Of a DNA stretch of 38,769 bases, positions 2,399 to 35,924 are shown piece after piece. How positions within the stretch are numbered: the stretch's first letter is position 1; each line of letters starts with the position of its first letter. The notes under the pieces are model-generated. The model did no database searches and was not told where the DNA came from. It was given only the letters and a program-made list of their open reading frames with translations. Source of the stretch: a virus (Duplodnaviria; Heunggongvirae; Uroviricota; Caudoviricetes); IMG/VR virus record IMGVR_UViG_2778261204_000005, positions 1 through 38,769 of that record, one strand, 5' to 3'. Made by a program: the position numbers and the translations under genes.

Positions 2399-2572
2399 AA
2401 AACAAAACTCGCCGTAGCGAGTTCAGATAAAAGAAATCCCCGCGAGTGCGAGGATTGTTAGTTGCGCTCTGCTGCTGCCTTAGCCATTACCATATCCACC
2501 AAACTTCACCAGACATGATTCTCGCAATCACTATCATCACCAAAGTGATAATCACAACTTTAACTGGCGGCA

Positions 2573-3094
2573 TCATTCACCATCCTGCTGCGGTGCTGCT
2601 GGATATGCTTTTCTCATCCAATGCGTGGCGTCATGAATAACGAACTGATATTCATCATCAGTAAACATCGAGCCATCCCACTGTAGCCCGTCAAGAACGC
2701 CTCTGGATGGAGAGAATACCCAGATATCGAAATCGTATTTCTCCGGCATTCGCTCACTACAGCTTATCCAACCATCCGGAGTTACCGGAGAGTTGCCATT
2801 CACAAGGTCAGCTCGAACAAATAGCGTGTCATCATGGTGCTGATTGTGGCTGCACCACGTTAATTCGCTTAACTCGCCATCTTCTGGCCATACTCCAGCC
2901 GTTTGCAGCCAGATATGGGCTGGCGCATCCTGGCAAGGTGTATTAACTGGAAACTTGTAAGTTTGGCTTACAGGTTCGGCTTCCAGCGATGCCAGTGCAA
3001 TCCGTGCCAGTTCCATTTGTTCGCCACGGGTAAGTCCGTTTTCAAGCGGATTTTTAATGAACAATTCGATACGTTCTTTAGTGATAGTGCTCAT
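2573..3094 (-). CDS. DUF551-like phage protein
   Basis: Start moved to internal ATG (MSTITKER...) which has an AGGAG RBS and abuts the upstream gene stop; C-terminal region resembles DUF551. Confidence 0.6.
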   Translation of the reverse strand: MSTITKERIELFIKNPLENGLTRGEQMELARIALASLEAEPVSQTYKFPVNTPCQDAPAHIWLQTAGVWPEDGELSELTWCSHNQHHDDTLFVRADLVNGNSPVTPDGWISCSERMPEKYDFDIWVFSPSRGVLDGLQWDGSMFTDDEYQFVIHDATHWMRKAYPAAPQQDGE

Positions 3095-5985: not shown

Positions 5986-6186
5986 TCAGAATGGTAATTC
6001 GGATTGGGAGGAAAGAAACTCTCGCTCATTCATGCGCTCTCTTTGCGCCTGCCATAAGCAAAGTTGTTTCTTTGATTTATCTCCCGCTTTACGCCAGTAA
6101 CGAGCCTCAGCAATGTGATATTCTCTTTTTAATCGACTTAACTCTGGAGTTTTCGCCAGTTCTACCGGAATCATTTTGACCTCCAT
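5986..6186 (-). CDS. hypothetical small protein
   Basis: 66-aa ORF between kil and sak4. Confidence 0.4.
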   Translation of the reverse strand: MEVKMIPVELAKTPELSRLKREYHIAEARYWRKAGDKSKKQLCLWQAQRERMNEREFLSSQSELPF

Positions 6187-6284
6187 TTTCTGTAGGCTTC
6201 AACGGCCTCACGAAACATCTTTTCATCGCCAATAAAAGTGGCGATAGTGAATTTAGTCTGGATAGCCATAAGTGTTTTATCCAT
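6171..6284 (-). CDS. kil: host-killing protein Kil (FtsZ inhibitor), lambda-type
   Basis: Internal start MDKTLMAIQTKFTIATFIGDEKMFREAV matches lambda Kil; AGGAG RBS. Confidence 0.75.
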   Translation of the reverse strand: MDKTLMAIQTKFTIATFIGDEKMFREAVEAYRKWRSK

Positions 6285-6417
6285 TTTTGGGGACTCCTGG
6301 CTGATTAAGTATATCGATAAGGCGTTTCCATCCGTCACGTAATTTACGGGTGATTCGTTCAAGTAAAGATTCGGAAGGGCAGCCAGCAACAGGCCACCCT
6401 GCAATGGCATATTGCAT
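6277..6417 (-). CDS. cIII: CIII, FtsH protease inhibitor, lambda-type
   Basis: Hand translation gives MQYAIAGWPVAGCPSESLLERITRKLRDGWKRLIDILNQPGVPKNG (46 aa), matching lambda CIII; AAGGAG RBS; overlaps kil start as in lambda; not in the supplied ORF track because under 60 aa. Confidence 0.75.
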   Translation of the reverse strand: MQYAIAGWPVAGCPSESLLERITRKLRDGWKRLIDILNQPGVPKNG

Positions 6418-6489
6418 GGTGTGCTCCTTATTTATACATAACGAAAAACGCCTCGAGTGAAGCGTTATTGGTATGCGGTAACGCCGCGC

Positions 6490-6858
6490 TCAGGCGGCTT
6501 TGATAGTCATATCATCTGAATCAAATATTCCTGATGTATCGATATCGGTAATTCTTATTCCTTCGCTACCATCCATTGGAGGCCATCCTTCCTGACCATT
6601 TCCATCATTCCAGTCGAACTCACACACAACACCATATGCATTTAAGTCGCTTGAAATTGCTATAAGCAGAGCATGTTGCGCCAGCATGATTAATACAGCA
6701 TTTAATACAGAGCCGTGTTTATTGAGTCGGTATTCAGAGTCTGACCAGAAATTATTAATCTGGTGAAGTTTTTCCTCTGTCATTACGTCATGGTCGATTT
6801 CAATTTCTATTGATGCTTTCCAGTCGTAATCAATGATGTATTTTTTGATGTTTGACAT
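6490..6858 (-). CDS. hypothetical acidic phage protein (possibly DUF2528-like)
   Basis: 122-aa ORF; family guess from memory only. Confidence 0.45.
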   Translation of the reverse strand: MSNIKKYIIDYDWKASIEIEIDHDVMTEEKLHQINNFWSDSEYRLNKHGSVLNAVLIMLAQHALLIAISSDLNAYGVVCEFDWNDGNGQEGWPPMDGSEGIRITDIDTSGIFDSDDMTIKAA

Positions 6859-6876
6859 CTGTTCATATCCTCATAG

Positions 6877-6904
6877 ATAAAAAATCGCCCTCACACTGGA
6901 GGGC
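6877..6904 (-). terminator. rho-independent terminator (GCCCTC-loop-GAGGGC plus U-run)
   Basis: Hairpin followed by TTTTTT on minus strand upstream of the 122-aa gene. Confidence 0.55.
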
Positions 6905-7023
6905 AAAGAAGATTTCCAATAATCAGAACAAGTCGGCTCCTGTTTAGTTACGAGCGACATTGCTCCGTGTATTCACTCGTTGGAATGAATACACAGTGCA
7001 GTGTTTATTCTGTTGTTTATGCC

Positions 7024-7048
7024 AAAAATAAAGGCCGACTATGCGGCC
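7024..7048 (-). terminator. rho-independent terminator (tL1-like) immediately after the 140-aa membrane ORF
   Basis: GGCCG-loop-CGGCC hairpin followed by TTTATTTTT on minus strand. Confidence 0.6.
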
Positions 7049-7053
7049 TGAAA

Positions 7054-7476
7054 TTACTTAACCAATGATGCCGCATATTCAATTAGGAATAACTTAGGTG
7101 CAAGCAAAATCTTCAACCATTCGAAATTGAAGGCGATAATTAAAACACCCATAATTGAGCCAAATATAGGAACAAATACAGTGCATATATCGTAATAAAC
7201 CGAAGATATAAAATGTCCATCATTTGGACGTCCATCGAAAGACGTCCATCTCTCGCCATTATTTCTTGCCGTTCTTGCAAAACTAGGAAGTTTAATTGCT
7301 GCAATTAAAAGCAACAATCCAGCCACTTGGAAAAGTGCGCTATGGACAAAACTCCATATTAGCAACTGATGAACAACATCAGGAATCTGTGCCTGGCTAA
7401 ATGAAACAGCCGCGTCTATTCCATTGCTGGCTTTTTGCAGTAGTTCTACGAGAATCTTGTTTGCTTGTTCTTCCAT
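7054..7476 (-). CDS. small inner-membrane protein, candidate superinfection-exclusion/abortive-infection factor (SieB-position)
   Basis: 140-aa ORF with 2-3 hydrophobic helices, AT-rich, 9 nt downstream of N. Confidence 0.5.
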   Translation of the reverse strand: MEEQANKILVELLQKASNGIDAAVSFSQAQIPDVVHQLLIWSFVHSALFQVAGLLLLIAAIKLPSFARTARNNGERWTSFDGRPNDGHFISSVYYDICTVFVPIFGSIMGVLIIAFNFEWLKILLAPKLFLIEYAASLVK

Positions 7477-7484
7477 ATATCACC

Positions 7485-7784
7485 TCAAATAAGTGGTTTG
7501 CTGCCTAATTTCATTTTCTGGCGCCCAACACAAGTCACACCCATTTCGCTGCGTGGCTTGCGGTAGTAAATACGGTTCTGTTTACGCTCGACTTCTTCTG
7601 CCTTCTTGCAGCGAAGGCTTCCGAGTGATGCTGCTTTATCTGCTCTGACGCAACCAGAGAGCTTTAGCGCAATTTTTCGCGCCAGTCGCTGTTCTTGCAT
7701 TGCCTGTTCACGTTGAGCCTGTCTGCGTGCTCTGCGGCGATTTCTGGCGTTATCGTCAGCCAGATATGTAATTACTACTGTCAT
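7485..7784 (-). CDS. N: antitermination protein N (arginine-rich motif)
   Basis: Start moved to internal ATG with GGAGG RBS; N-terminal NARNRRRARRQAQRE arginine-rich motif; C-terminal half recognised as similar to N of phage 21/933W-type. Confidence 0.7.
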   Translation of the reverse strand: MTVVITYLADDNARNRRRARRQAQREQAMQEQRLARKIALKLSGCVRADKAASLGSLRCKKAEEVERKQNRIYYRKPRSEMGVTCVGRQKMKLGSKPLI

Positions 7785-7839
7785 GTTGACCTCCGATGAA
7801 ACAACTTTGGAATTGATAGTGATTGCAAAGTGGTTTCTG

Positions 7840-7869
7840 GCCCCTCGAACTGAGGGGCAGAAAGAGCAT
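7840..7869 (-). promoter_or_regulatory. nut-like element: boxA-like ATGCTCTTTCT followed by 7-bp-stem hairpin GCCCCTC-AGTTC-GAGGGGC, about 55 nt upstream of N
   Basis: Read on minus strand; no U-run so not a terminator. Confidence 0.4.
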
Positions 7870-8345
7870 CTCGCCACCTAATAGGTCAATGCTCGGATCG
7901 AGAGATTTAATTAACCTCGGTTTTGAAGTTATGCATTCACATAAATCCTCCTGTTGCATGTGCAGCATTGGCTGTGTTTGGCGGCTGCATTTCGCCTATG
8001 GAATTGACTTTGGCGGTGACGCGCCGGGTGCTTATCTTCCGGTTGCCGTCGTGCAGCTGCACTTCACGTCACCCCAAAGCCAACTACTCTTTGACTCACA
8101 CTCTCGCAGTGAGCGCGCCCATGCCATTGAGTCTCTGCCGCTTCATCGCCGCTGATAACCGGTGCGCGTCTGGCATTCGTGCTGCTTTACCGGAGCTACT
8201 TTTAATATATTGACCTTAACCCGATGCTAAGCAGGCTCGCTCAATGACGACTCAGGGCAGTATCATTACTGCTGCATTGCCTTTCGGCTGCGGTCTAACC
8301 GCGTTAGTGCACCATTACGGCACCTCCTGTTTGGTTAAACTCAGT

Positions 8346-8387
8346 TCCCGCATTTCGGCGGGACAATCCCATCAATGTTAAAGAGCC
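8346..8387 (-). promoter_or_regulatory. nutL: boxA (GGCTCTTTAA) and boxB hairpin (TCCCGC-CGAAAT-GCGGGA)
   Basis: boxB is the same 18 nt as at nutR. Confidence 0.65.
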
Positions 8388-8436
8388 TGCCAATCTGTTC
8401 CGTTTGGCTACCAGCGTCCTGCTGATGGCTTAAAGA

Positions 8437-8519
8437 TAACTTAGGTTATAGGTGCGGTCAATAACCTAATTTATATTTTATGGTAAATAAGTTATAAGTG
8501 ATGGATAACAAAGGTATTT
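8437..8519. promoter_or_regulatory. OL/PL region with three ATAAC-N4-GTTAT-type operator sites
   Basis: One perfect site ATAACTTAGGTTAT and two variants at about 25-bp and 44-bp spacing. Confidence 0.6.
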
Positions 8520-8644
8520 TATTTTTGTAAATGTTGCTGATTGATTGGTGTTTGAGGGCTTACGTGCGGGGTGAAGGTGTTACCTTTGGCTTGATGCTTG
8601 TCTATGATGAGGATGGTTGATTGGGTGGTGAACGGCAGGAAAAG

Positions 8645-8672
8645 AAAACCCGGCGCTGAGGCCGGGTGTTTT
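8645..8672. terminator. bidirectional rho-independent terminator (CCCGGC-GCTGAG-GCCGGG flanked by U/A runs)
   Basis: Ends the cI-orf98 transcript (minus strand) and insulates from plus-strand read-in. Confidence 0.6.
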
Positions 8673-8968
8673 TAGTCTTTTCTTTTGCTTAGCATTTCGT
8701 CGATTTCTAAGTCAATACGATATTGATCTATTGCTTTTCTCTCGTTTGGGGTTGGTATTTTATACTGTTCAATTAGATCTGTTGTGTATTTTATTTCATC
8801 TAATGTGATTTTTATATCAGAGAGAATCTCTTTTATATCAATTAGATGCTCTTCTTCTTTTGCGCGATTAGAGCTATGTTCAATCATTTGAGATAGCTTT
8901 TTGCTAATGCTTAGCAAAACAAAAAGAATGATGACCAAAACAACAACAAAAACTATCAGAAATTCCAT
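8672..8968 (-). CDS. AT-rich single-pass membrane protein co-transcribed with cI (rex-position moron)
   Basis: 98-aa ORF with N-terminal hydrophobic helix and charged coiled-coil-like tail; 40 bp downstream of cI. Confidence 0.55.
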   Translation of the reverse strand: MEFLIVFVVVLVIILFVLLSISKKLSQMIEHSSNRAKEEEHLIDIKEILSDIKITLDEIKYTTDLIEQYKIPTPNERKAIDQYRIDLEIDEMLSKRKD

Positions 8969-9008
8969 TATCCCTCCGCACTTCCGTAAGTCTTCTTCTG
9001 ATTATCGG

Positions 9009-9716
9009 TTACCAACTATGAGACGACCAGAATACTCTGCCAATAATCCTTACGGTTTCATGAAATTCATCTCTATCCATTACTTCATCCGGGTACTCTT
9101 CGCGATTTATTGATCTGATTATCACCGATGTAGGGGTGGCGATTAATGTTTTTACTCGTAACAAATCAGACTGGCAAATAGCGTAGGTTTTACCATCTCT
9201 GATTGTGGTATCTTGCGTGTTAACACCAACAACATCGCCATCGTGAAGCGTTGGTTCCATGCTTTGCCCTACAACCCTAACTAGCTTGGCTGATCTTTCT
9301 GATACTCCCATCTTTTTCAGATAGTGCTTTCTGAAAACCAAAGAGAACTCCGATGATTCCTCTAGCTCGCAGCTACCGCTTCCAGCTGAAAGCGAAACGT
9401 TAAGAAGAGGCAACGCAACAAACTCGTCATCGTTTCTTTTAATGTCTTCCCATACCACAGCTTTTAAAGATGACTCACGGACATTGGATGGTTCTTCATG
9501 TGCACCATCCCTCATTTCACCAATACCAGAACTAAGCCATTCAGGACGCACTTTTAAAGCATTGGCTAATTCAACCATCTTGCGAGATCCGTTTGTTTTA
9601 CCGGACGACATCTTCTGTATGGCTGGCTGAGATATTCCAACCATGTCAGCAAGCTGTGATTGTGATACCCCTGCTGAGCTCATGGCTGCATTTAGTCTTT
9701 CTGCGAATGTTTTCAT
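9009..9716 (-). CDS. cI: CI-type prophage repressor (HTH plus LexA-like S24 peptidase domain)
   Basis: HTH (QSQLADMVGISQPAIQKM) and S24 motif GQSMEPTL with downstream Lys; start set at ATG MKTFAERL; the track ORF extends to 9746 from a non-ATG start. Confidence 0.8.
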   Translation of the reverse strand: MKTFAERLNAAMSSAGVSQSQLADMVGISQPAIQKMSSGKTNGSRKMVELANALKVRPEWLSSGIGEMRDGAHEEPSNVRESSLKAVVWEDIKRNDDEFVALPLLNVSLSAGSGSCELEESSEFSLVFRKHYLKKMGVSERSAKLVRVVGQSMEPTLHDGDVVGVNTQDTTIRDGKTYAICQSDLLRVKTLIATPTSVIIRSINREEYPDEVMDRDEFHETVRIIGRVFWSSHSW

Positions 9717-9728
9717 ACCCACAAATCT

Positions 9729-9791
9729 ATAACTACGGTTATCCAAAGTAAAATAACAAAGGTTATTGCTATTTTTTATAACTTGAGTTAT
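9729..9791. promoter_or_regulatory. OR operators (three 14-bp ATAAC-N4-GTTAT sites at ~24-25-bp spacing) with divergent PRM/PR
   Basis: ATAACTACGGTTAT, ATAACAAAGGTTAT, ATAACTTGAGTTAT between cI and cro. Confidence 0.7.
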
Positions 9792-9827
9792 CTTTGGTTA
9801 TAAGTAATGACCACAAGAGGTATGCTC

Positions 9828-10052
9828 ATGAATTTAGTAATTCAACGAGCCTTGAAAATTGTCGGTAGCCAAAAGCGCCTTGCCGACAAGTGTGGTGTAA
9901 CGCAGCCAGCAGTACACAAATGGCTGAAAGGCGGGTTGGTCTCTCCAGAGAAAGTTACCGCCATCGTTAACGCCACTGGAGGGCAGATCAAGGCTTACGA
10001 AATTCGCCCCGATTTGCCACACCTGTTTCCAAAACCGAATCAGGCAGCATAA
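9828..10052 (+). CDS. cro: Cro-like HTH repressor
   Basis: HTH GSQKRLADKCGVTQPAVHKW; start chosen at third in-frame ATG which has an AAGAGG RBS (track ORF starts at 9807). Confidence 0.65.
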   Translation: MNLVIQRALKIVGSQKRLADKCGVTQPAVHKWLKGGLVSPEKVTAIVNATGGQIKAYEIRPDLPHLFPKPNQAA

Positions 10053-21457: not shown

Positions 21458-23584
21458 ATGGCAGAGACATTAGAGAAAAAACATGAGCGGATCATGCTCA
21501 GGTTTGACCGCGCCTATTCTCCACAGCAGGAAGTGCGCGAAAAGTGCATTGAAGCTACGAGGTTTGCTCGTGTCCCCGGAGGTCAATGGGAAGGAGCAAC
21601 GGCGGCTGGAACTAAGCTTGATGAGCAGTTCGAGAAGTATCCTAAGTTTGAAATCAATAAGGTAGCAACTGAACTTAACCGCATCATTGCAGAATACCGC
21701 AATAACAGAATCACCGTTAAGTTTCGTCCTGGTGACAGAGAGGCAAGCGAAGAGTTAGCCAATAAATTAAATGGTCTGTTCCGTGCTGACTACGAAGAAA
21801 CTGATGGCGGTGAGGCTTGCGATAATGCATTTGACGACGCTGCTACTGGTGGTTTCGGTTGCTTCCGTTTGACGTCGATGCTGGTCAATGAATACGACCC
21901 CATGGACGATCGTCAGCGTATTGCTATTGAACCAATATACGACCCGTCGCGCTCTGTGTGGTTTGACCCTGACGCTAAGAAGTACGACAAATCTGACGCG
22001 TTGTGGGCGTTCTGCATGTATTCGTTGTCACCTGAAAAATATGAGGCTGAATACGGAAAGAAACCTCCTGCTTCTCTGGATGTAACGTCTATGAACAGTT
22101 GGGAATATGACTGGTTTGATGCAGATGTTATTTACATAGCGAAGTATTACGAAGTTCGTAAAGAGTCTGTTGACGTCATCAGTTATCGACATCCAATCAC
22201 TGGAGAGATTGCAACATACGACAGTGATCAGGTTGAAGATATTGAAGATGAACTGGCAATAGCTGGATTTCAGGAAGTGGCAAGGCGCTCAGTGAAGCGC
22301 CGTCGTGTGTATGTATCCGTAGTGGATGGTGATGGTTTCCTTGAGAAACCTCGACGTATTCCTGGTGAGCATATCCCCCTCATCCCGGTTTATGGAAAAC
22401 GCTGGTTCATTGATGACATTGAGCGTGTCGAAGGGCACATTGCAAAAGCAATGGATCCGCAGCGTTTGTACAACCTTCAGGTTTCAATGCTGGCTGATAC
22501 TGCAGCGCAAGACCCCGGTCAGATCCCTATAGTTGGCATGGAGCAAATTCGTGGACTTGAGAAGCACTGGGAGGCTCGCAACAAGAAACGCCCAGCGTTC
22601 TTGCCGTTGCGCGAAGTGAGAGATAAATCTGGCAACATTATCGCTGGAGCTACCCCGGCAGGATATACACAGCCTGCGGTTATGAATCAGGCATTGGCTG
22701 CATTACTACAGCAAACCAGTGCTGATATTCAGGAGGTTACAGGCGGCAGTCAGGCCATGCAGCAGATGCCAAGTAATATTGCTCAGGAAACGGTTAACAA
22801 CTTGATGAACAGAGCAGATATGGCTTCGTTTATCTATCTGGACAATATGGCGAAAAGTCTTAAACGCGCTGGTGAAGTATGGCTGTCAATGGCGCGTGAA
22901 GTGTACGGTTCAGAACGTGAAGTGCGCATCGTTAACGAAGATGGAAGTGATGATATCGCAGTCCTGAGCGCACAGGTTGTTGACAGGCAAACAGGGGCTG
23001 TTGTTGCGTTAAATGACCTTTCTGTCGGTCGATACGATGTGACGGTTGATGTTGGACCAAGCTACACAGCACGACGTGATGCAACGGTTTCTGTACTGAC
23101 AAATGTCCTTAGCTCTATGCTTCCAACAGACCCAATGCGCCCGGCAATTCAGGGTATTATTCTGGACAATATCGATGGCGAAGGCCTTGATGACTTCAAA
23201 GAGTACAACCGAAACCAACTGCTGATATCTGGTATTGCAAAACCACGCAATGAGAAAGAGCAGCAGATTGTTCAACAGGCGCAAATGGCAGCACAAAGCC
23301 AGCCAAATCCTGAAATGGTTCTCGCTCAGGCGCAAATGGTAGCAGCGCAGGCAGAAGCGCAAAAAGCAACTAACGAAACTGCTCAAACTCAAATCAAAGC
23401 ATTTACTGCCCAGCAGGATGCGATGGAGAGTCAGGCAAACACTGTCTATAAACTGGCTCAAGCCAGAAACATCGATGACAAAGCAGTGATGGAGGCAATA
23501 CGCCTTCTGAAAGATGTCGCCGAGTCACAACAACAGCAATTCCAGTCACCACCACAGTCACCGGCAGACTTAATGCCGAGTTAA
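21458..23584 (+). CDS. portal protein (P22 gp1-type)
   Basis: Start set at ATG 2 nt after terL stop (MAETLEKKHERIMLRFD); track ORF has an upstream extension. Confidence 0.85.
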   Translation: MAETLEKKHERIMLRFDRAYSPQQEVREKCIEATRFARVPGGQWEGATAAGTKLDEQFEKYPKFEINKVATELNRIIAEYRNNRITVKFRPGDREASEELANKLNGLFRADYEETDGGEACDNAFDDAATGGFGCFRLTSMLVNEYDPMDDRQRIAIEPIYDPSRSVWFDPDAKKYDKSDALWAFCMYSLSPEKYEAEYGKKPPASLDVTSMNSWEYDWFDADVIYIAKYYEVRKESVDVISYRHPITGEIATYDSDQVEDIEDELAIAGFQEVARRSVKRRRVYVSVVDGDGFLEKPRRIPGEHIPLIPVYGKRWFIDDIERVEGHIAKAMDPQRLYNLQVSMLADTAAQDPGQIPIVGMEQIRGLEKHWEARNKKRPAFLPLREVRDKSGNIIAGATPAGYTQPAVMNQALAALLQQTSADIQEVTGGSQAMQQMPSNIAQETVNNLMNRADMASFIYLDNMAKSLKRAGEVWLSMAREVYGSEREVRIVNEDGSDDIAVLSAQVVDRQTGAVVALNDLSVGRYDVTVDVGPSYTARRDATVSVLTNVLSSMLPTDPMRPAIQGIILDNIDGEGLDDFKEYNRNQLLISGIAKPRNEKEQQIVQQAQMAAQSQPNPEMVLAQAQMVAAQAEAQKATNETAQTQIKAFTAQQDAMESQANTVYKLAQARNIDDKAVMEAIRLLKDVAESQQQQFQSPPQSPADLMPS

Positions 23585-33707: not shown

Positions 33708-35924
33708 ATGTCAGATATCACCGCCAATGTTGTGGTCAGCATGCCTTCGCAACTCTTCACTATGGCTCGTTCTTTTAAAGCCGTAGCCAATGGCAAAATT
33801 TATATCGGTAAAATTGACACTGACCCGGTAAATCCTGAAAACCAGATTCAGGTTTATGTGGAAAACGAAGACGGCTCTCACGTTCCTGTTTCGCAACCAA
33901 TCATCATTAACGCTGCTGGTTACCCTGTATATAATGGACAGATTACCAAGTTCGTAACTGAGCAAGGCCATTCTATGGCTGTTTATGATGCGTATGGGGC
34001 GCAGCAGTTTTATTTCCCTAATGTGCTGAAGTATGACCCTGATCAGTTCAGTCAGCAATTAGCTTCATTTGACCCTCCAGGAACAAACCTGATTGGTACC
34101 AAGGGCGGTGTTAATCTCACGCAATACCTTGATCGTGTATTCATGTTTATCGACGATCTGCCTGGCGTAGATAAGACGGGCGTTCTTGATAGCTCTGCAG
34201 CGCTAAACACCGCCATCACCACCTACAGCGGCGTGGGTGTGGAGTTTATTGGCAATCCATCCAGTACGTATCTCCTTACCGGCACCGTACAATGCATTGG
34301 AGTCAGTAATATCACGCTGAACTTCAATGGCGCGAAGATAATGGATAACGTCCAGGGTTTTATCCCAACTTCTGGTAACCGCGCAAACCACACTTTTGTA
34401 GTTTACAACGCTAAAAAAATTCGTATCACAAACTTTGTTTATGATGTAGCCCCCACCCGCGCCGACGCCACGTTAAGCAACCCGTCCGCACCGTCAACGG
34501 TAATGCTTTGGGTGGGGGGGCAATACCTTGGCAGTGCAATGACAAGTGATGTTGAAATAGATCGCATCTACAACGTGGAAAATAAGGGGCTCAATAACGG
34601 GTTCGTTATCTGCGGGATGGGTGAGCTCGACGGCATCCACGTACATGACTGCCTGATAAAAGGTGGCGCGTGGAAATTTGGTTGTAACTTCGAATACGGT
34701 CTTGCACCTGTAGACCCAGCAACTAATTCAACACTAACTAACGGCCTTCACCCGTACAATATCTACGTAGAGCGATTTAACGTTGAGAATGTTCCTACTT
34801 GCGACGGTTGGTGGCGTACAGCATCTTGTTATAATGCTAAGTTCATAAACTGCACCGCGTATAACACACGCTCTCCGATTTATGTCTATTCGGGGGATAG
34901 GGGGATAACACGATACTCGCAGAACGTAACATTTGAAAACGTAAAGACTAAATATAGTGATGATGTCACATACACCAATGCCAGTGTACAGGTTATTATC
35001 ACGGATAAAGATGGCTCTACGGGGGACACGCTGCCGTCATGGTCAAACTTCGACCATACGTTTATGTTTATAAACTGTGAAATCGGCTCCACTAGAGGAG
35101 CAAACTCCAGTTCATATCGTGTATTCGGCAACATGGGTAAGGTGCATGTCATAGGGGGTATTGTAGAGAACTCCTACTTTGGGGCGCACTGTCAACCATC
35201 GCTCAATCCGACATTCCTGTCTGATGGGGCTATTATTTTCGAAGGAGTAGTATTCAAAAATTGCTTCCAGTTCCTACGCATGGGCGGGGTAAAAGGCTGG
35301 CGTGTCGAAAATTGTACATTTAAACGACATTTATGGGGTTCCACTAGCGCGGCGCAAGTAGACCCAGCCGTATTTTTCAACGGTACAACTGGTCTTCTTA
35401 GGGGTAATACCTGGAACGCACTATCAACTGGTAGTGGGGCGACATGGTATCTTAATTGCCAATCTAGTACCATTCGCATGCGGGATAATGACTTCACGTG
35501 TCCGTCTGTTTATAACTTCCCGGTTATATGGTCGTCTGTGCTGCCGGTGTTAATCGGTAATGGTAACTTGTCCAATACCACATACCTTATTAGCCCCGAT
35601 GTTAACTCCCCGGCCATCTACGGTGAACCTTGTCCGTCCAAAACACTGGAGTCGATAACCGGGTCCGCAATTAACTTCAATATATCAAGTATTTGGACCG
35701 CTAGCGGGACTAAGACCATTAACTCCATCACCGGCGGCAAGCCAGGAGATAAAGTTATCATAAACCCGACGACGGGAGCGGCAAACGTCACATTTGAGTT
35801 TGGTACGGTCACCGGTGAAAACCGCATAGTTCCTCGTACCGTAGCCACCGAGGTAAAAACAGGCACGGGATGGTCAAAAACATTTATCAAGATGTCAGGA
35901 GCACAAGGATGGTGGGAAGTGTAG
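33708..35924 (+). CDS. tailspike protein: P22-type N-terminal head-binding domain fused to a distinct beta-helix receptor-binding domain
   Basis: [47 protein letters not shown] matches P22 gp9 N-terminus; remainder is G/N/T-rich; GGAG RBS. Confidence 0.85.

Follow-up and report, generated by a model that had tools for sequence, protein, structure and literature searches.

The functions of most genes of the early left operon are unknown (PMC8022706, a genome paper on P22-like phages). The closest described relatives of the gene considered here are gene 34 of Shigella phage Sf6 (product gp34, AAQ12224.1), ECRS218_0047 of phage CUS-3 and gene 44 of phage HK639, and the slot between N and ral/ea10 houses sieB in lambda and in P22-like phages. 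In the current work, a stretch of 38,769 nt from a virus of the Caudoviricetes (IMG/VR record IMGVR_UViG_2778261204_000005, positions 1 to 38,769; the whole of this stretch is referred to as the window) was analysed with respect to an open reading frame (ORF) of 140 amino acids (aa) located directly downstream of an N-like antitermination gene. The encoded protein was found to be 98.6% identical to Sf6 gp34, 92.1% identical to its CUS-3 counterpart and 47.5% identical to that of HK639, and its sole significant PHROG match is to family 3054 (unknown function; E 2.6e-51, profile positions 1-137 of 137). It thus adds to a catalogued, uncharacterised family and is a near-identical copy of the gene annotated in Sf6 in 2004. 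The explanation which best accounts for the locus as a whole, and to which we assign an even chance, is that of an N-joined Sf6 gene 34 cassette which is expressed early and independently of N, and which specifies an accessory membrane factor.

The stop codon of the N-like gene (TGA, 7487-7485) is followed by an 8-nt gap, GGTGATAT, the ATG of the ORF starting at the ninth base after N, and the Shine-Dalgarno sequence of the ORF, GAGGTGAT, overlaps this stop codon (7477..7487, - strand), an arrangement which suggests translational coupling with N. The same junction, or its remnant, is present in many prophages. The GC content amounts to approximately 0.36-0.40 over the ORF versus approximately 0.50 over N. 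The ORF is a real protein-coding gene and no chance reading frame, because the ratio of non-synonymous to synonymous polymorphism (pN/pS) is low within allele classes and because the HK639 homologue retains the N-terminal residues while many of its synonymous sites are changed. The initial annotation, which had been made from the sequence of the window without database searches, described an AT-rich frame of 140 aa at 7054..7476 with its start 9 nt after N and two to three hydrophobic helices; the frame is present at that position, its base composition is as described, and the helices correspond to two strong hydrophobic segments and a hydrophobic-amphipathic C-terminal helix. A weak tblastn match of the ORF elsewhere in the window (22685-22888) falls in the portal gene and was dismissed as a chance match.

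Alignment of the window with Sf6, CUS-3 and lambda, together with a comparison of prophage loci, showed that the gene forms a self-contained cassette, in which a strong ribosome-binding site precedes the coding sequence and an intrinsic-terminator hairpin belonging to the cassette follows it. This cassette, which is missing from lambda, consists of GAGGTGATATATG, the coding sequence and then TAATTTCAGGCCGCATAGTCGGCCTTTATTTTT. In lambda, the post-ral sequence ...GTGGCCTTTATTTTT runs straight into GGCATAAATAACAG..., and in Sf6 and CUS-3 the cassette is flanked by two copies of GGCCTTTATTTTT. Two types of 5' junction were encountered: in the first (the window, HF4s and many prophages) the 3' end of N or its remnant TTATTTGAGGTGATATATG abuts the gene, and in the second (Sf6 and CUS-3) the ral hairpin and a 58-nt spacer precede it.

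Two hairpins had been placed behind the ORF by the initial annotation, and both were recovered as a canonical stem plus T-tract (7049..7023 and 6906..6879). The cassette hairpin (AGGCCG-CATAGT-CGGCCT followed by TTTATTTTT, 7049..7032 plus tail) begins 5 nt past the stop codon of the ORF, and the second hairpin has the sequence TTGCCCTC-CAGTGT-GAGGGCGA followed by TTTTTT (6906..6885 plus tail). In the terminator scan both present a GC-rich stem, a short loop and a T-tract on the transcribed strand, this being the pattern of an intrinsic terminator, and the region 6000-9900 contains eight terminator-like sites versus 3.5 +/- 1.7 in shuffled sequences. The second hairpin folds at -12.9 kcal/mol (z -2.95), none of 200 shuffled sequences being as stable; its stem sequence is identical in lambda at 33,933-33,950, and the depositors annotated it as 'tL2A' for Sf6 and as a terminator for phage 21. 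The cassette 3' hairpin accompanies the gene in Sf6, CUS-3, SPN9CC and prophages, whatever lies downstream, and a pattern scan of viral contigs returned at least 80 loci; among the 80 loci listed, the cassette stem is intact in 68 and compensated on both sides in one (GGACG...CGTCC). The second hairpin is the lambda tL2a element and the cassette hairpin belongs to the gene cassette. Lambda, Sf6, CUS-3 and the window have almost the same sequence in the spacer that leads up to the second hairpin (the Sf6 record gives bsq4 and then 'tL2A'), and this spacer contains a further hairpin with a 14-bp near-perfect stem, identical in lambda, Sf6 and CUS-3, which lies within the segment annotated as 'bsq4 boundary sequence' in the Sf6 record. 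This spacer hairpin could act as a site of processing, as a barrier by virtue of its structure or as a linker for recombination.

Terminators which are unrelated in sequence directly follow the homologues in HK639 (depositor-annotated), K1M and F14. The HK639 operon is arranged as pL, put RNA, a gene, the homologue and two terminators; it is without N, put RNA being present in its place, and the two terminators behind the homologue, ACCCGCTCCGGCGGGTTTTTT and a second one, were both annotated by the depositors. In PhiR46_1 a strong hairpin with a weak T-tract lies behind the homologue, and in Oslo a variant of the cassette hairpin of the window is found. The recurrence, with unrelated hairpins, of a layout in which the homologue is followed by a terminator argues for genuine termination where the gene ends.

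The terminator scan detected no terminator-like site on the - strand between the candidate pL promoter and the ORF, and no sense-strand promoter-like site was detected upstream of the ORF, either in the window (relaxed 8/12 scan) or in Sf6. Considering that no promoter of its own was found, expression of the ORF should come from pL, together with N, and the gene should be repressed in the lysogen and switched on right after infection or induction. Termination should occur at both hairpins and should be relieved by N; since no terminator-like site lies between the candidate pL and the ORF and two follow it, the ORF would be independent of N in the window and the downstream genes would depend on it. 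The initial annotation had formulated this as a gene without, and downstream genes with, a need for N, a statement which applies to the window and does not extend to a general rule: in Sf6 and CUS-3 the post-ral hairpin with its T-tract precedes the gene, and N-independence is therefore specific to the junction type of the window. An antisense promoter-like match inside the ORF (7127..7155, + strand, TTGAAG-17-CATAAT, 9/12), which is kept in Sf6 (locus L001, 3850..3822), is within chance expectation for the region.

With regard to the protein, a Kyte-Doolittle profile displays strong hydrophobic segments at approximately residues 38-62 and 96-118 as well as a hydrophobic-amphipathic C-terminal helix (119-139), and an AlphaFold2 model based on an alignment of 41 sequences (mean predicted local distance difference test score 81.8) contains helices at 2-72, 93-116 and 119-139. 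The protein is a predicted helical hairpin in the inner membrane with two transmembrane (TM) helices, in which the N-terminal 46 and the C-terminal 22 residues are located on the same face of the membrane. These terminal segments, with helices assigned to residues 1-46 and 118-140, are strongly conserved across 144 representatives, and the centre formed by TM1, the loop and TM2 varies in both sequence and length. Residues conserved among the representatives, and present in the ORF, are F26, P32, Q37-L-L and W41, together with the C-terminal motif W-L-K-I-x-x-A-P-K-x-Y-L-x-E-Y-A-A; in the variable centre, only W77 and D96 are semi-conserved. Eighty-seven proteins whose N-terminus is at least 85% identical to that of the query fall into at least 16 centre clusters with a median identity of 29%, and over the first approximately 100 nt, alleles with centres of 20-50% identity have DNA of 97-100% identity.

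Within allele classes, pN/pS amounts to 0.09-0.16 at the ends, a range taken from the 140-aa and 149-aa classes, which are well sampled, the 121-aa class having small counts, and to 0.35-0.48 in the centre. Among the loci listed, the upstream ORF belongs to the 149-aa class in 44 cases, to the 140-aa class in 12 and to the 121-aa class in 11, with 10 being truncated, and each of the three classes is found with both types of 5' junction. The near-identical ends and shared 3' hairpin, combined with centres that cannot be aligned and that assort freely with the junctions, indicate recombination inside the coding sequence. Because pN/pS in the centre is below 1, the simplest reading of this region combines a membrane anchor under relaxed constraint with allelic lineages that are old and with recombination in the conserved ends.

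The family is large: 445 clusters at 90% identity were obtained in one search, and a profile search returned at least 3,755 representatives at 50% identity with E<=1e-3, and 1,746 with E<=1e-10; the best 150 representatives listed are all single-domain proteins of 70-184 aa. No Pfam family was found for the ORF, the best match being DUF1031 (E 0.059) over the variable loop, and a Pfam scan of the 41 aligned members gave scattered matches above E 0.005, none of which was common to more than four members. Likewise, no NCBIfam family was found for the ORF, PADLOC returned no family at E<=10, and among PDB sequences the best match of a profile search was to the TM helices of connexin, at E 2.7. 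A literature search on Sf6 gp34, PHROG 3054, lambdoid early-left membrane proteins and HK639 retrieved no functional work.

In lambdoid prophages the homologue is always within one or two genes of N and co-oriented with it. Homologues are also present in the early regions of strictly lytic phages. In N4-like Ithacavirus the gene has the RNA polymerase genes on one side and the replication genes on the other, and in rV5-like phages it belongs to an early cluster. Replication modules contain it in Vibrio phages and in a metagenomic phage. No conserved partner gene was found in the lytic phages, the neighbours being an AAA ATPase, a CapR-domain protein, NADAR, DUF2800 and a YadA-like protein. Approximately 10 of the 77 prophage copies among the loci listed are truncated and the gene is missing from lambda, from which it follows that the gene is dispensable; P22 itself is not known to carry it. 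In PhiR46_1 a 149-aa homologue (locus L105, 1801..2250) is located outside the early left operon, between Rz and Nu1, this being the classical 'bor' moron site of lambda. In HK633 (locus L007, 2191..2866) a 121-aa homologue at 2501..2863 is unannotated and overlapped by two annotated coding sequences (2191-2580 and 2690-2866), which probably reflects a mis-annotation or a disrupted copy.

The position of the ORF had been likened by the initial annotation to that of sieB, and this holds for the slot itself; homology to SieB, and membership of the SieB family, are rejected on sequence grounds. The profile search against SieB and Abi families which had been proposed as a check gave no match for the ORF. 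SieB of lambda and of SPN9CC match Pfam PF14163 at 1e-29 and 7e-28, respectively, and neither the ORF nor 40 of its relatives match this family at E<=1; hhalign between the two alignments returned a probability of 0.1%, and blastp returned nothing. The frames that match PF14163 lie opposite to the N/pL strand (lambda, L005 1483..2037, +; SPN9CC, L008 1779..2330, -; Oslo, L104 1069..1656, -), and the ORF is co-oriented with N. In SPN9CC and Oslo, sieB and a homologue of the ORF are found side by side, and the two genes are therefore not alternatives to one another; sieB was not found in the window. Ranade and Poteete (1993) are reported to have described SieB as being transcribed from a promoter of its own, with expression in the prophage state. 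Since no promoter-like site was detected upstream of the ORF, the prophage expression that SieB-type exclusion requires is unlikely here.

This part of the window is the early left (pL) operon of a P22-like/lambdoid phage and has an ordinary lambdoid architecture (Table 1); HK620, CUS-3 and Sf6 match half of the first 25 kb of the window at approximately 97%.

Table 1 Positions of the early-left features in the window, listed in their order along the minus strand, starting with the repressor gene
Feature	Position	Strand	Characteristics
cI-type repressor gene	9009..9746	-	faces a cro-type gene across operator palindromes
Candidate pL	8433..8461	-	TTGACC-17-TATCTT; operator-like palindromes overlap pL and recur at OR
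Candidate nutL	7840..7868	-	boxA-like TGCTCTTTC, then boxB-like 7-bp stem with 5-nt loop; resemblance only
N-like antitermination protein gene	7485..7790	-	101 aa; PHROG 271, E 1.9e-37
140-aa ORF, Sf6 gene 34 family (PHROG 3054)	7054..7476	-	ATG to TAA
Cassette terminator	7023..7049	-	6-bp GC-rich stem, 6-nt loop, TTTATTTTT tail
Spacer hairpin without T-tract	6961..7000	-	between both terminators; -22.6 kcal/mol, z -5.9
Second terminator, homologue of lambda tL2a	6879..6906	-	8-bp stem and TTTTTT; just upstream of ea10
ea10 (DUF2528)	6490..6858	-	Pfam E 1.8e-47; PHROG 646; first gene past the terminators
Rfam Lambda_thermo (cIII thermoregulator)	6372..6430	-	88.5 bits, E 2e-21

The boxB-like element of the candidate nutL site (GCCCCTC-AGTTC-GAGGGGC; fold -18.4 kcal/mol, z -3.7) is located with its boxA-like neighbour 50-78 nt upstream of the N start codon. 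The DNA of the N-like gene is, in a part of its length, 97.5-98.5% identical to phage 21 / imm21 N (97.5% for phage 21 itself). The arginine-rich N-terminus of the protein is unlike those of the N proteins of lambda, P22 and phage 21, and the candidate nutL site would serve it. Downstream of ea10 follow cIII and then Sak4-type and single-stranded DNA-binding protein recombination genes, and the Rfam match indicates that the translational thermosensor of lambda cIII is conserved in the window.

On the other side of the candidate pL promoter, a 98-aa ORF (8672..8968, - strand) directly downstream of the cI-type repressor gene occupies the position of rexAB in lambda. Its product carries a transmembrane helix at the N-terminus and has a charged tail of repeat-like sequence, the GC content of the ORF is 0.34, and the product matches PHROG 18389 (unknown function) at E 5e-62; among 50,697 phage records one partial match only was obtained. 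It is accompanied by a bidirectional terminator (8648..8667) situated between the cI-type repressor gene and the candidate pL. As a prophage-expressed gene co-transcribed with cI, this ORF is a better candidate than the 140-aa ORF.

According to the explanation favoured here, the gene would be expressed along with N as soon as the phage infects or is induced and would be kept off by repression in the lysogen, with the tandem terminators making everything downstream dependent on N. The product of the gene would be an accessory, dispensable early inner-membrane factor whose conserved ends would act on a component, conserved in Gammaproteobacteria, of the envelope or associated with the membrane. 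Its effect would most likely be that a cell which has just been infected becomes refractory to a second infection, or to abortive responses at the level of the membrane, and the logic would be that of early exclusion as with Imm of phage T4, a small early membrane protein with two hydrophobic helices which is made at once after infection, and not that of prophage-expressed exclusion as with SieB. Exclusion during the lytic programme is our leading guess and is put forward with low confidence, counter-defence and modulation of host physiology being close rivals. Indirect indications of such a function, in phage-phage or phage-host conflict, are the early-region location of the gene in lambdoid, N4-like, rV5-like and Vibrio phages, the neighbourhood between N and cIII, where known conflict genes such as ral and sieB are found, the truncated prophage copies, which point to dispensability, and the unrelated centre types carried by near-identical ends. 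Several observations weigh against the explanation. No homology to characterised exclusion, holin, Abi or anti-defence proteins was found in Pfam, PHROG, NCBIfam or PADLOC, and fold searches returned only uncharacterised family members (Foldseek, viral structures) or generic helical hairpins. Exclusion proteins usually have a narrow range, whereas members of the present family are found in phages that differ widely. No positive selection was detected in the variable centre, pN/pS being 0.35-0.76 and never above 1, so that the diversity of the centre may reflect relaxed constraint and recombination and not an arms race. Lysine plus arginine counts are balanced between the termini (5.2) and the loop (5.0), and charge bias thus gives no orientation in the membrane. 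With respect to expression, the promoter scans are consensus matches, and a weak or activator-dependent promoter is possible. Finally, the cassette hairpin is only moderate in stability (-9.7 kcal/mol, z -2.0, with 7 of 200 shuffled sequences being as stable), and its stem is broken in Sf6 and SPN9CC, and, among the 80 loci listed, carries a one-side mismatch in eight and is otherwise altered in three.

These last observations bear on whether the two hairpins are functional terminators at all, or instead mosaic boundary sequences or RNA-processing elements which are read through in the absence of N. The bsq4 annotation of the inter-hairpin segment in Sf6, the near-identity of this segment across phages, its very stable hairpin without a T-tract, and the weakness of a cassette hairpin that is broken in some relatives would all fit such a reading, which we nevertheless regard as improbable: both sites possess the canonical GC-rich stem, short loop and U-tract, the second is tL2A or a terminator in two curated records, one compensatory double change keeps the cassette stem, and unrelated canonical terminators occupy the same place behind the HK639, K1M and F14 homologues. 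In a rival view of the function, the ends of the product would bind a conserved inner-membrane machine of the host, which could be a protease, a transporter, the division apparatus or a component of energy coupling, and early phage development would benefit, a logic analogous to that of cIII or Kil, whose genes belong to the same operon. The conservation of the ends from Vibrio and Pseudomonas to enterobacterial phages while the anchor varies, and the presence of the gene in early or replication modules of other phages, agree with a host-physiology modulator of this kind, but there is no homology or partner evidence for it, and the frequent loss or truncation of the gene and its absence from lambda indicate that it is not needed for basic growth; we consider this a minority possibility of some substance. 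Counter-defence, in which an immediate-early protein, produced ahead of everything else to let the infection survive, neutralises a membrane-associated effector of abortive infection or exclusion belonging to the host or to a resident prophage, for example a SieB- or Rex-like one, is a minority possibility as well and is ranked next. The N-independent position in the first pL segment and the tight coupling to N would suit it, as would the adjacency to the anti-restriction gene ral in Sf6 and CUS-3, the presence in both lytic and temperate phages and the conservation of the ends across hosts, but similarity to known anti-defence proteins is absent, no consistent co-occurrence with a particular defence gene was seen, and the proposal is speculation. 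Exclusion of the SieB type, that is, a prophage-expressed protein which aborts the lytic growth of superinfecting phages, has in its favour a small membrane protein encoded between N and ea10, in the sieB slot of lambda and P22-like phages; it is very improbable in view of the uniformly negative PF14163, hhalign and blastp results, the strand and length (approximately 184 aa) of SieB and its co-occurrence with the homologue in SPN9CC and Oslo, the failure to detect a promoter belonging to the gene, and the homologues in strictly lytic phages.

Considered alone, the locus adds little, being a near-identical copy of an Sf6 gene in a textbook lambdoid early operon. The family is noteworthy for its very large size and for its absence from Pfam, NCBIfam and defence catalogues; in many phages its members belong to the first unit to be transcribed, frequently in coupling with an antiterminator gene, and they combine constant ends with a variable centre. 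It is conceivable, though doubtful at present, that the Sf6 gp34 family, with members in temperate lambdoid phages and in N4-like, rV5-like and marine Vibrio phages, constitutes an unrecognised class of immediate-early phage membrane effectors, in which the conserved end helices would engage a conserved host or defence component and the hypervariable TM hairpin would set the specificity; this specificity may serve the exclusion of secondary phages during the lytic programme or the neutralisation of membrane-bound abortive-infection effectors. If a role in exclusion or counter-defence were true, the family would represent a common and lifestyle-independent player in phage conflict biology, and the pL-proximal, N-independent position found in the window offers a simple handle on the function of the gene.

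When compared with known systems, the ORF resembles T4 Imm (Pfam Imm_superinfect) by analogy only, as a small early membrane protein with two helices, and differs from it in having no Pfam or PHROG match to Imm or to any other exclusion family. With SieB it shares a small size, a predicted inner-membrane location and the interval between N and ral/cIII, and it differs in length, in strand relative to N and in the lack of any sequence or profile similarity. Its likeness to a lambdoid moron consists in being a discrete insert relative to lambda, with a GC content below that of N and a terminator of its own, and in the PhiR46_1 homologue occupying a classical moron site; a promoter of its own was not detected in the window or in Sf6, which sets it apart from a moron in the strict sense. 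Relative to the pL operon of lambda, the first barrier after N in the window is the cassette hairpin and not tL1, and the lambda counterpart of the cassette 3' junction folds poorly, whereas the stem and T-tract of tL2a are identical in the window and lie in the same place, just upstream of ea10. The closest correspondence is that with Sf6, CUS-3 and HK639: in Sf6 and CUS-3, ral and a hairpin separate N from the gene, which in the window is only 8 nt away from N, but all three phages encode a family member in the same pL operon and in the same orientation, followed by the same 3' hairpin in Sf6 and CUS-3 and, as in the window, by two terminators in HK639.

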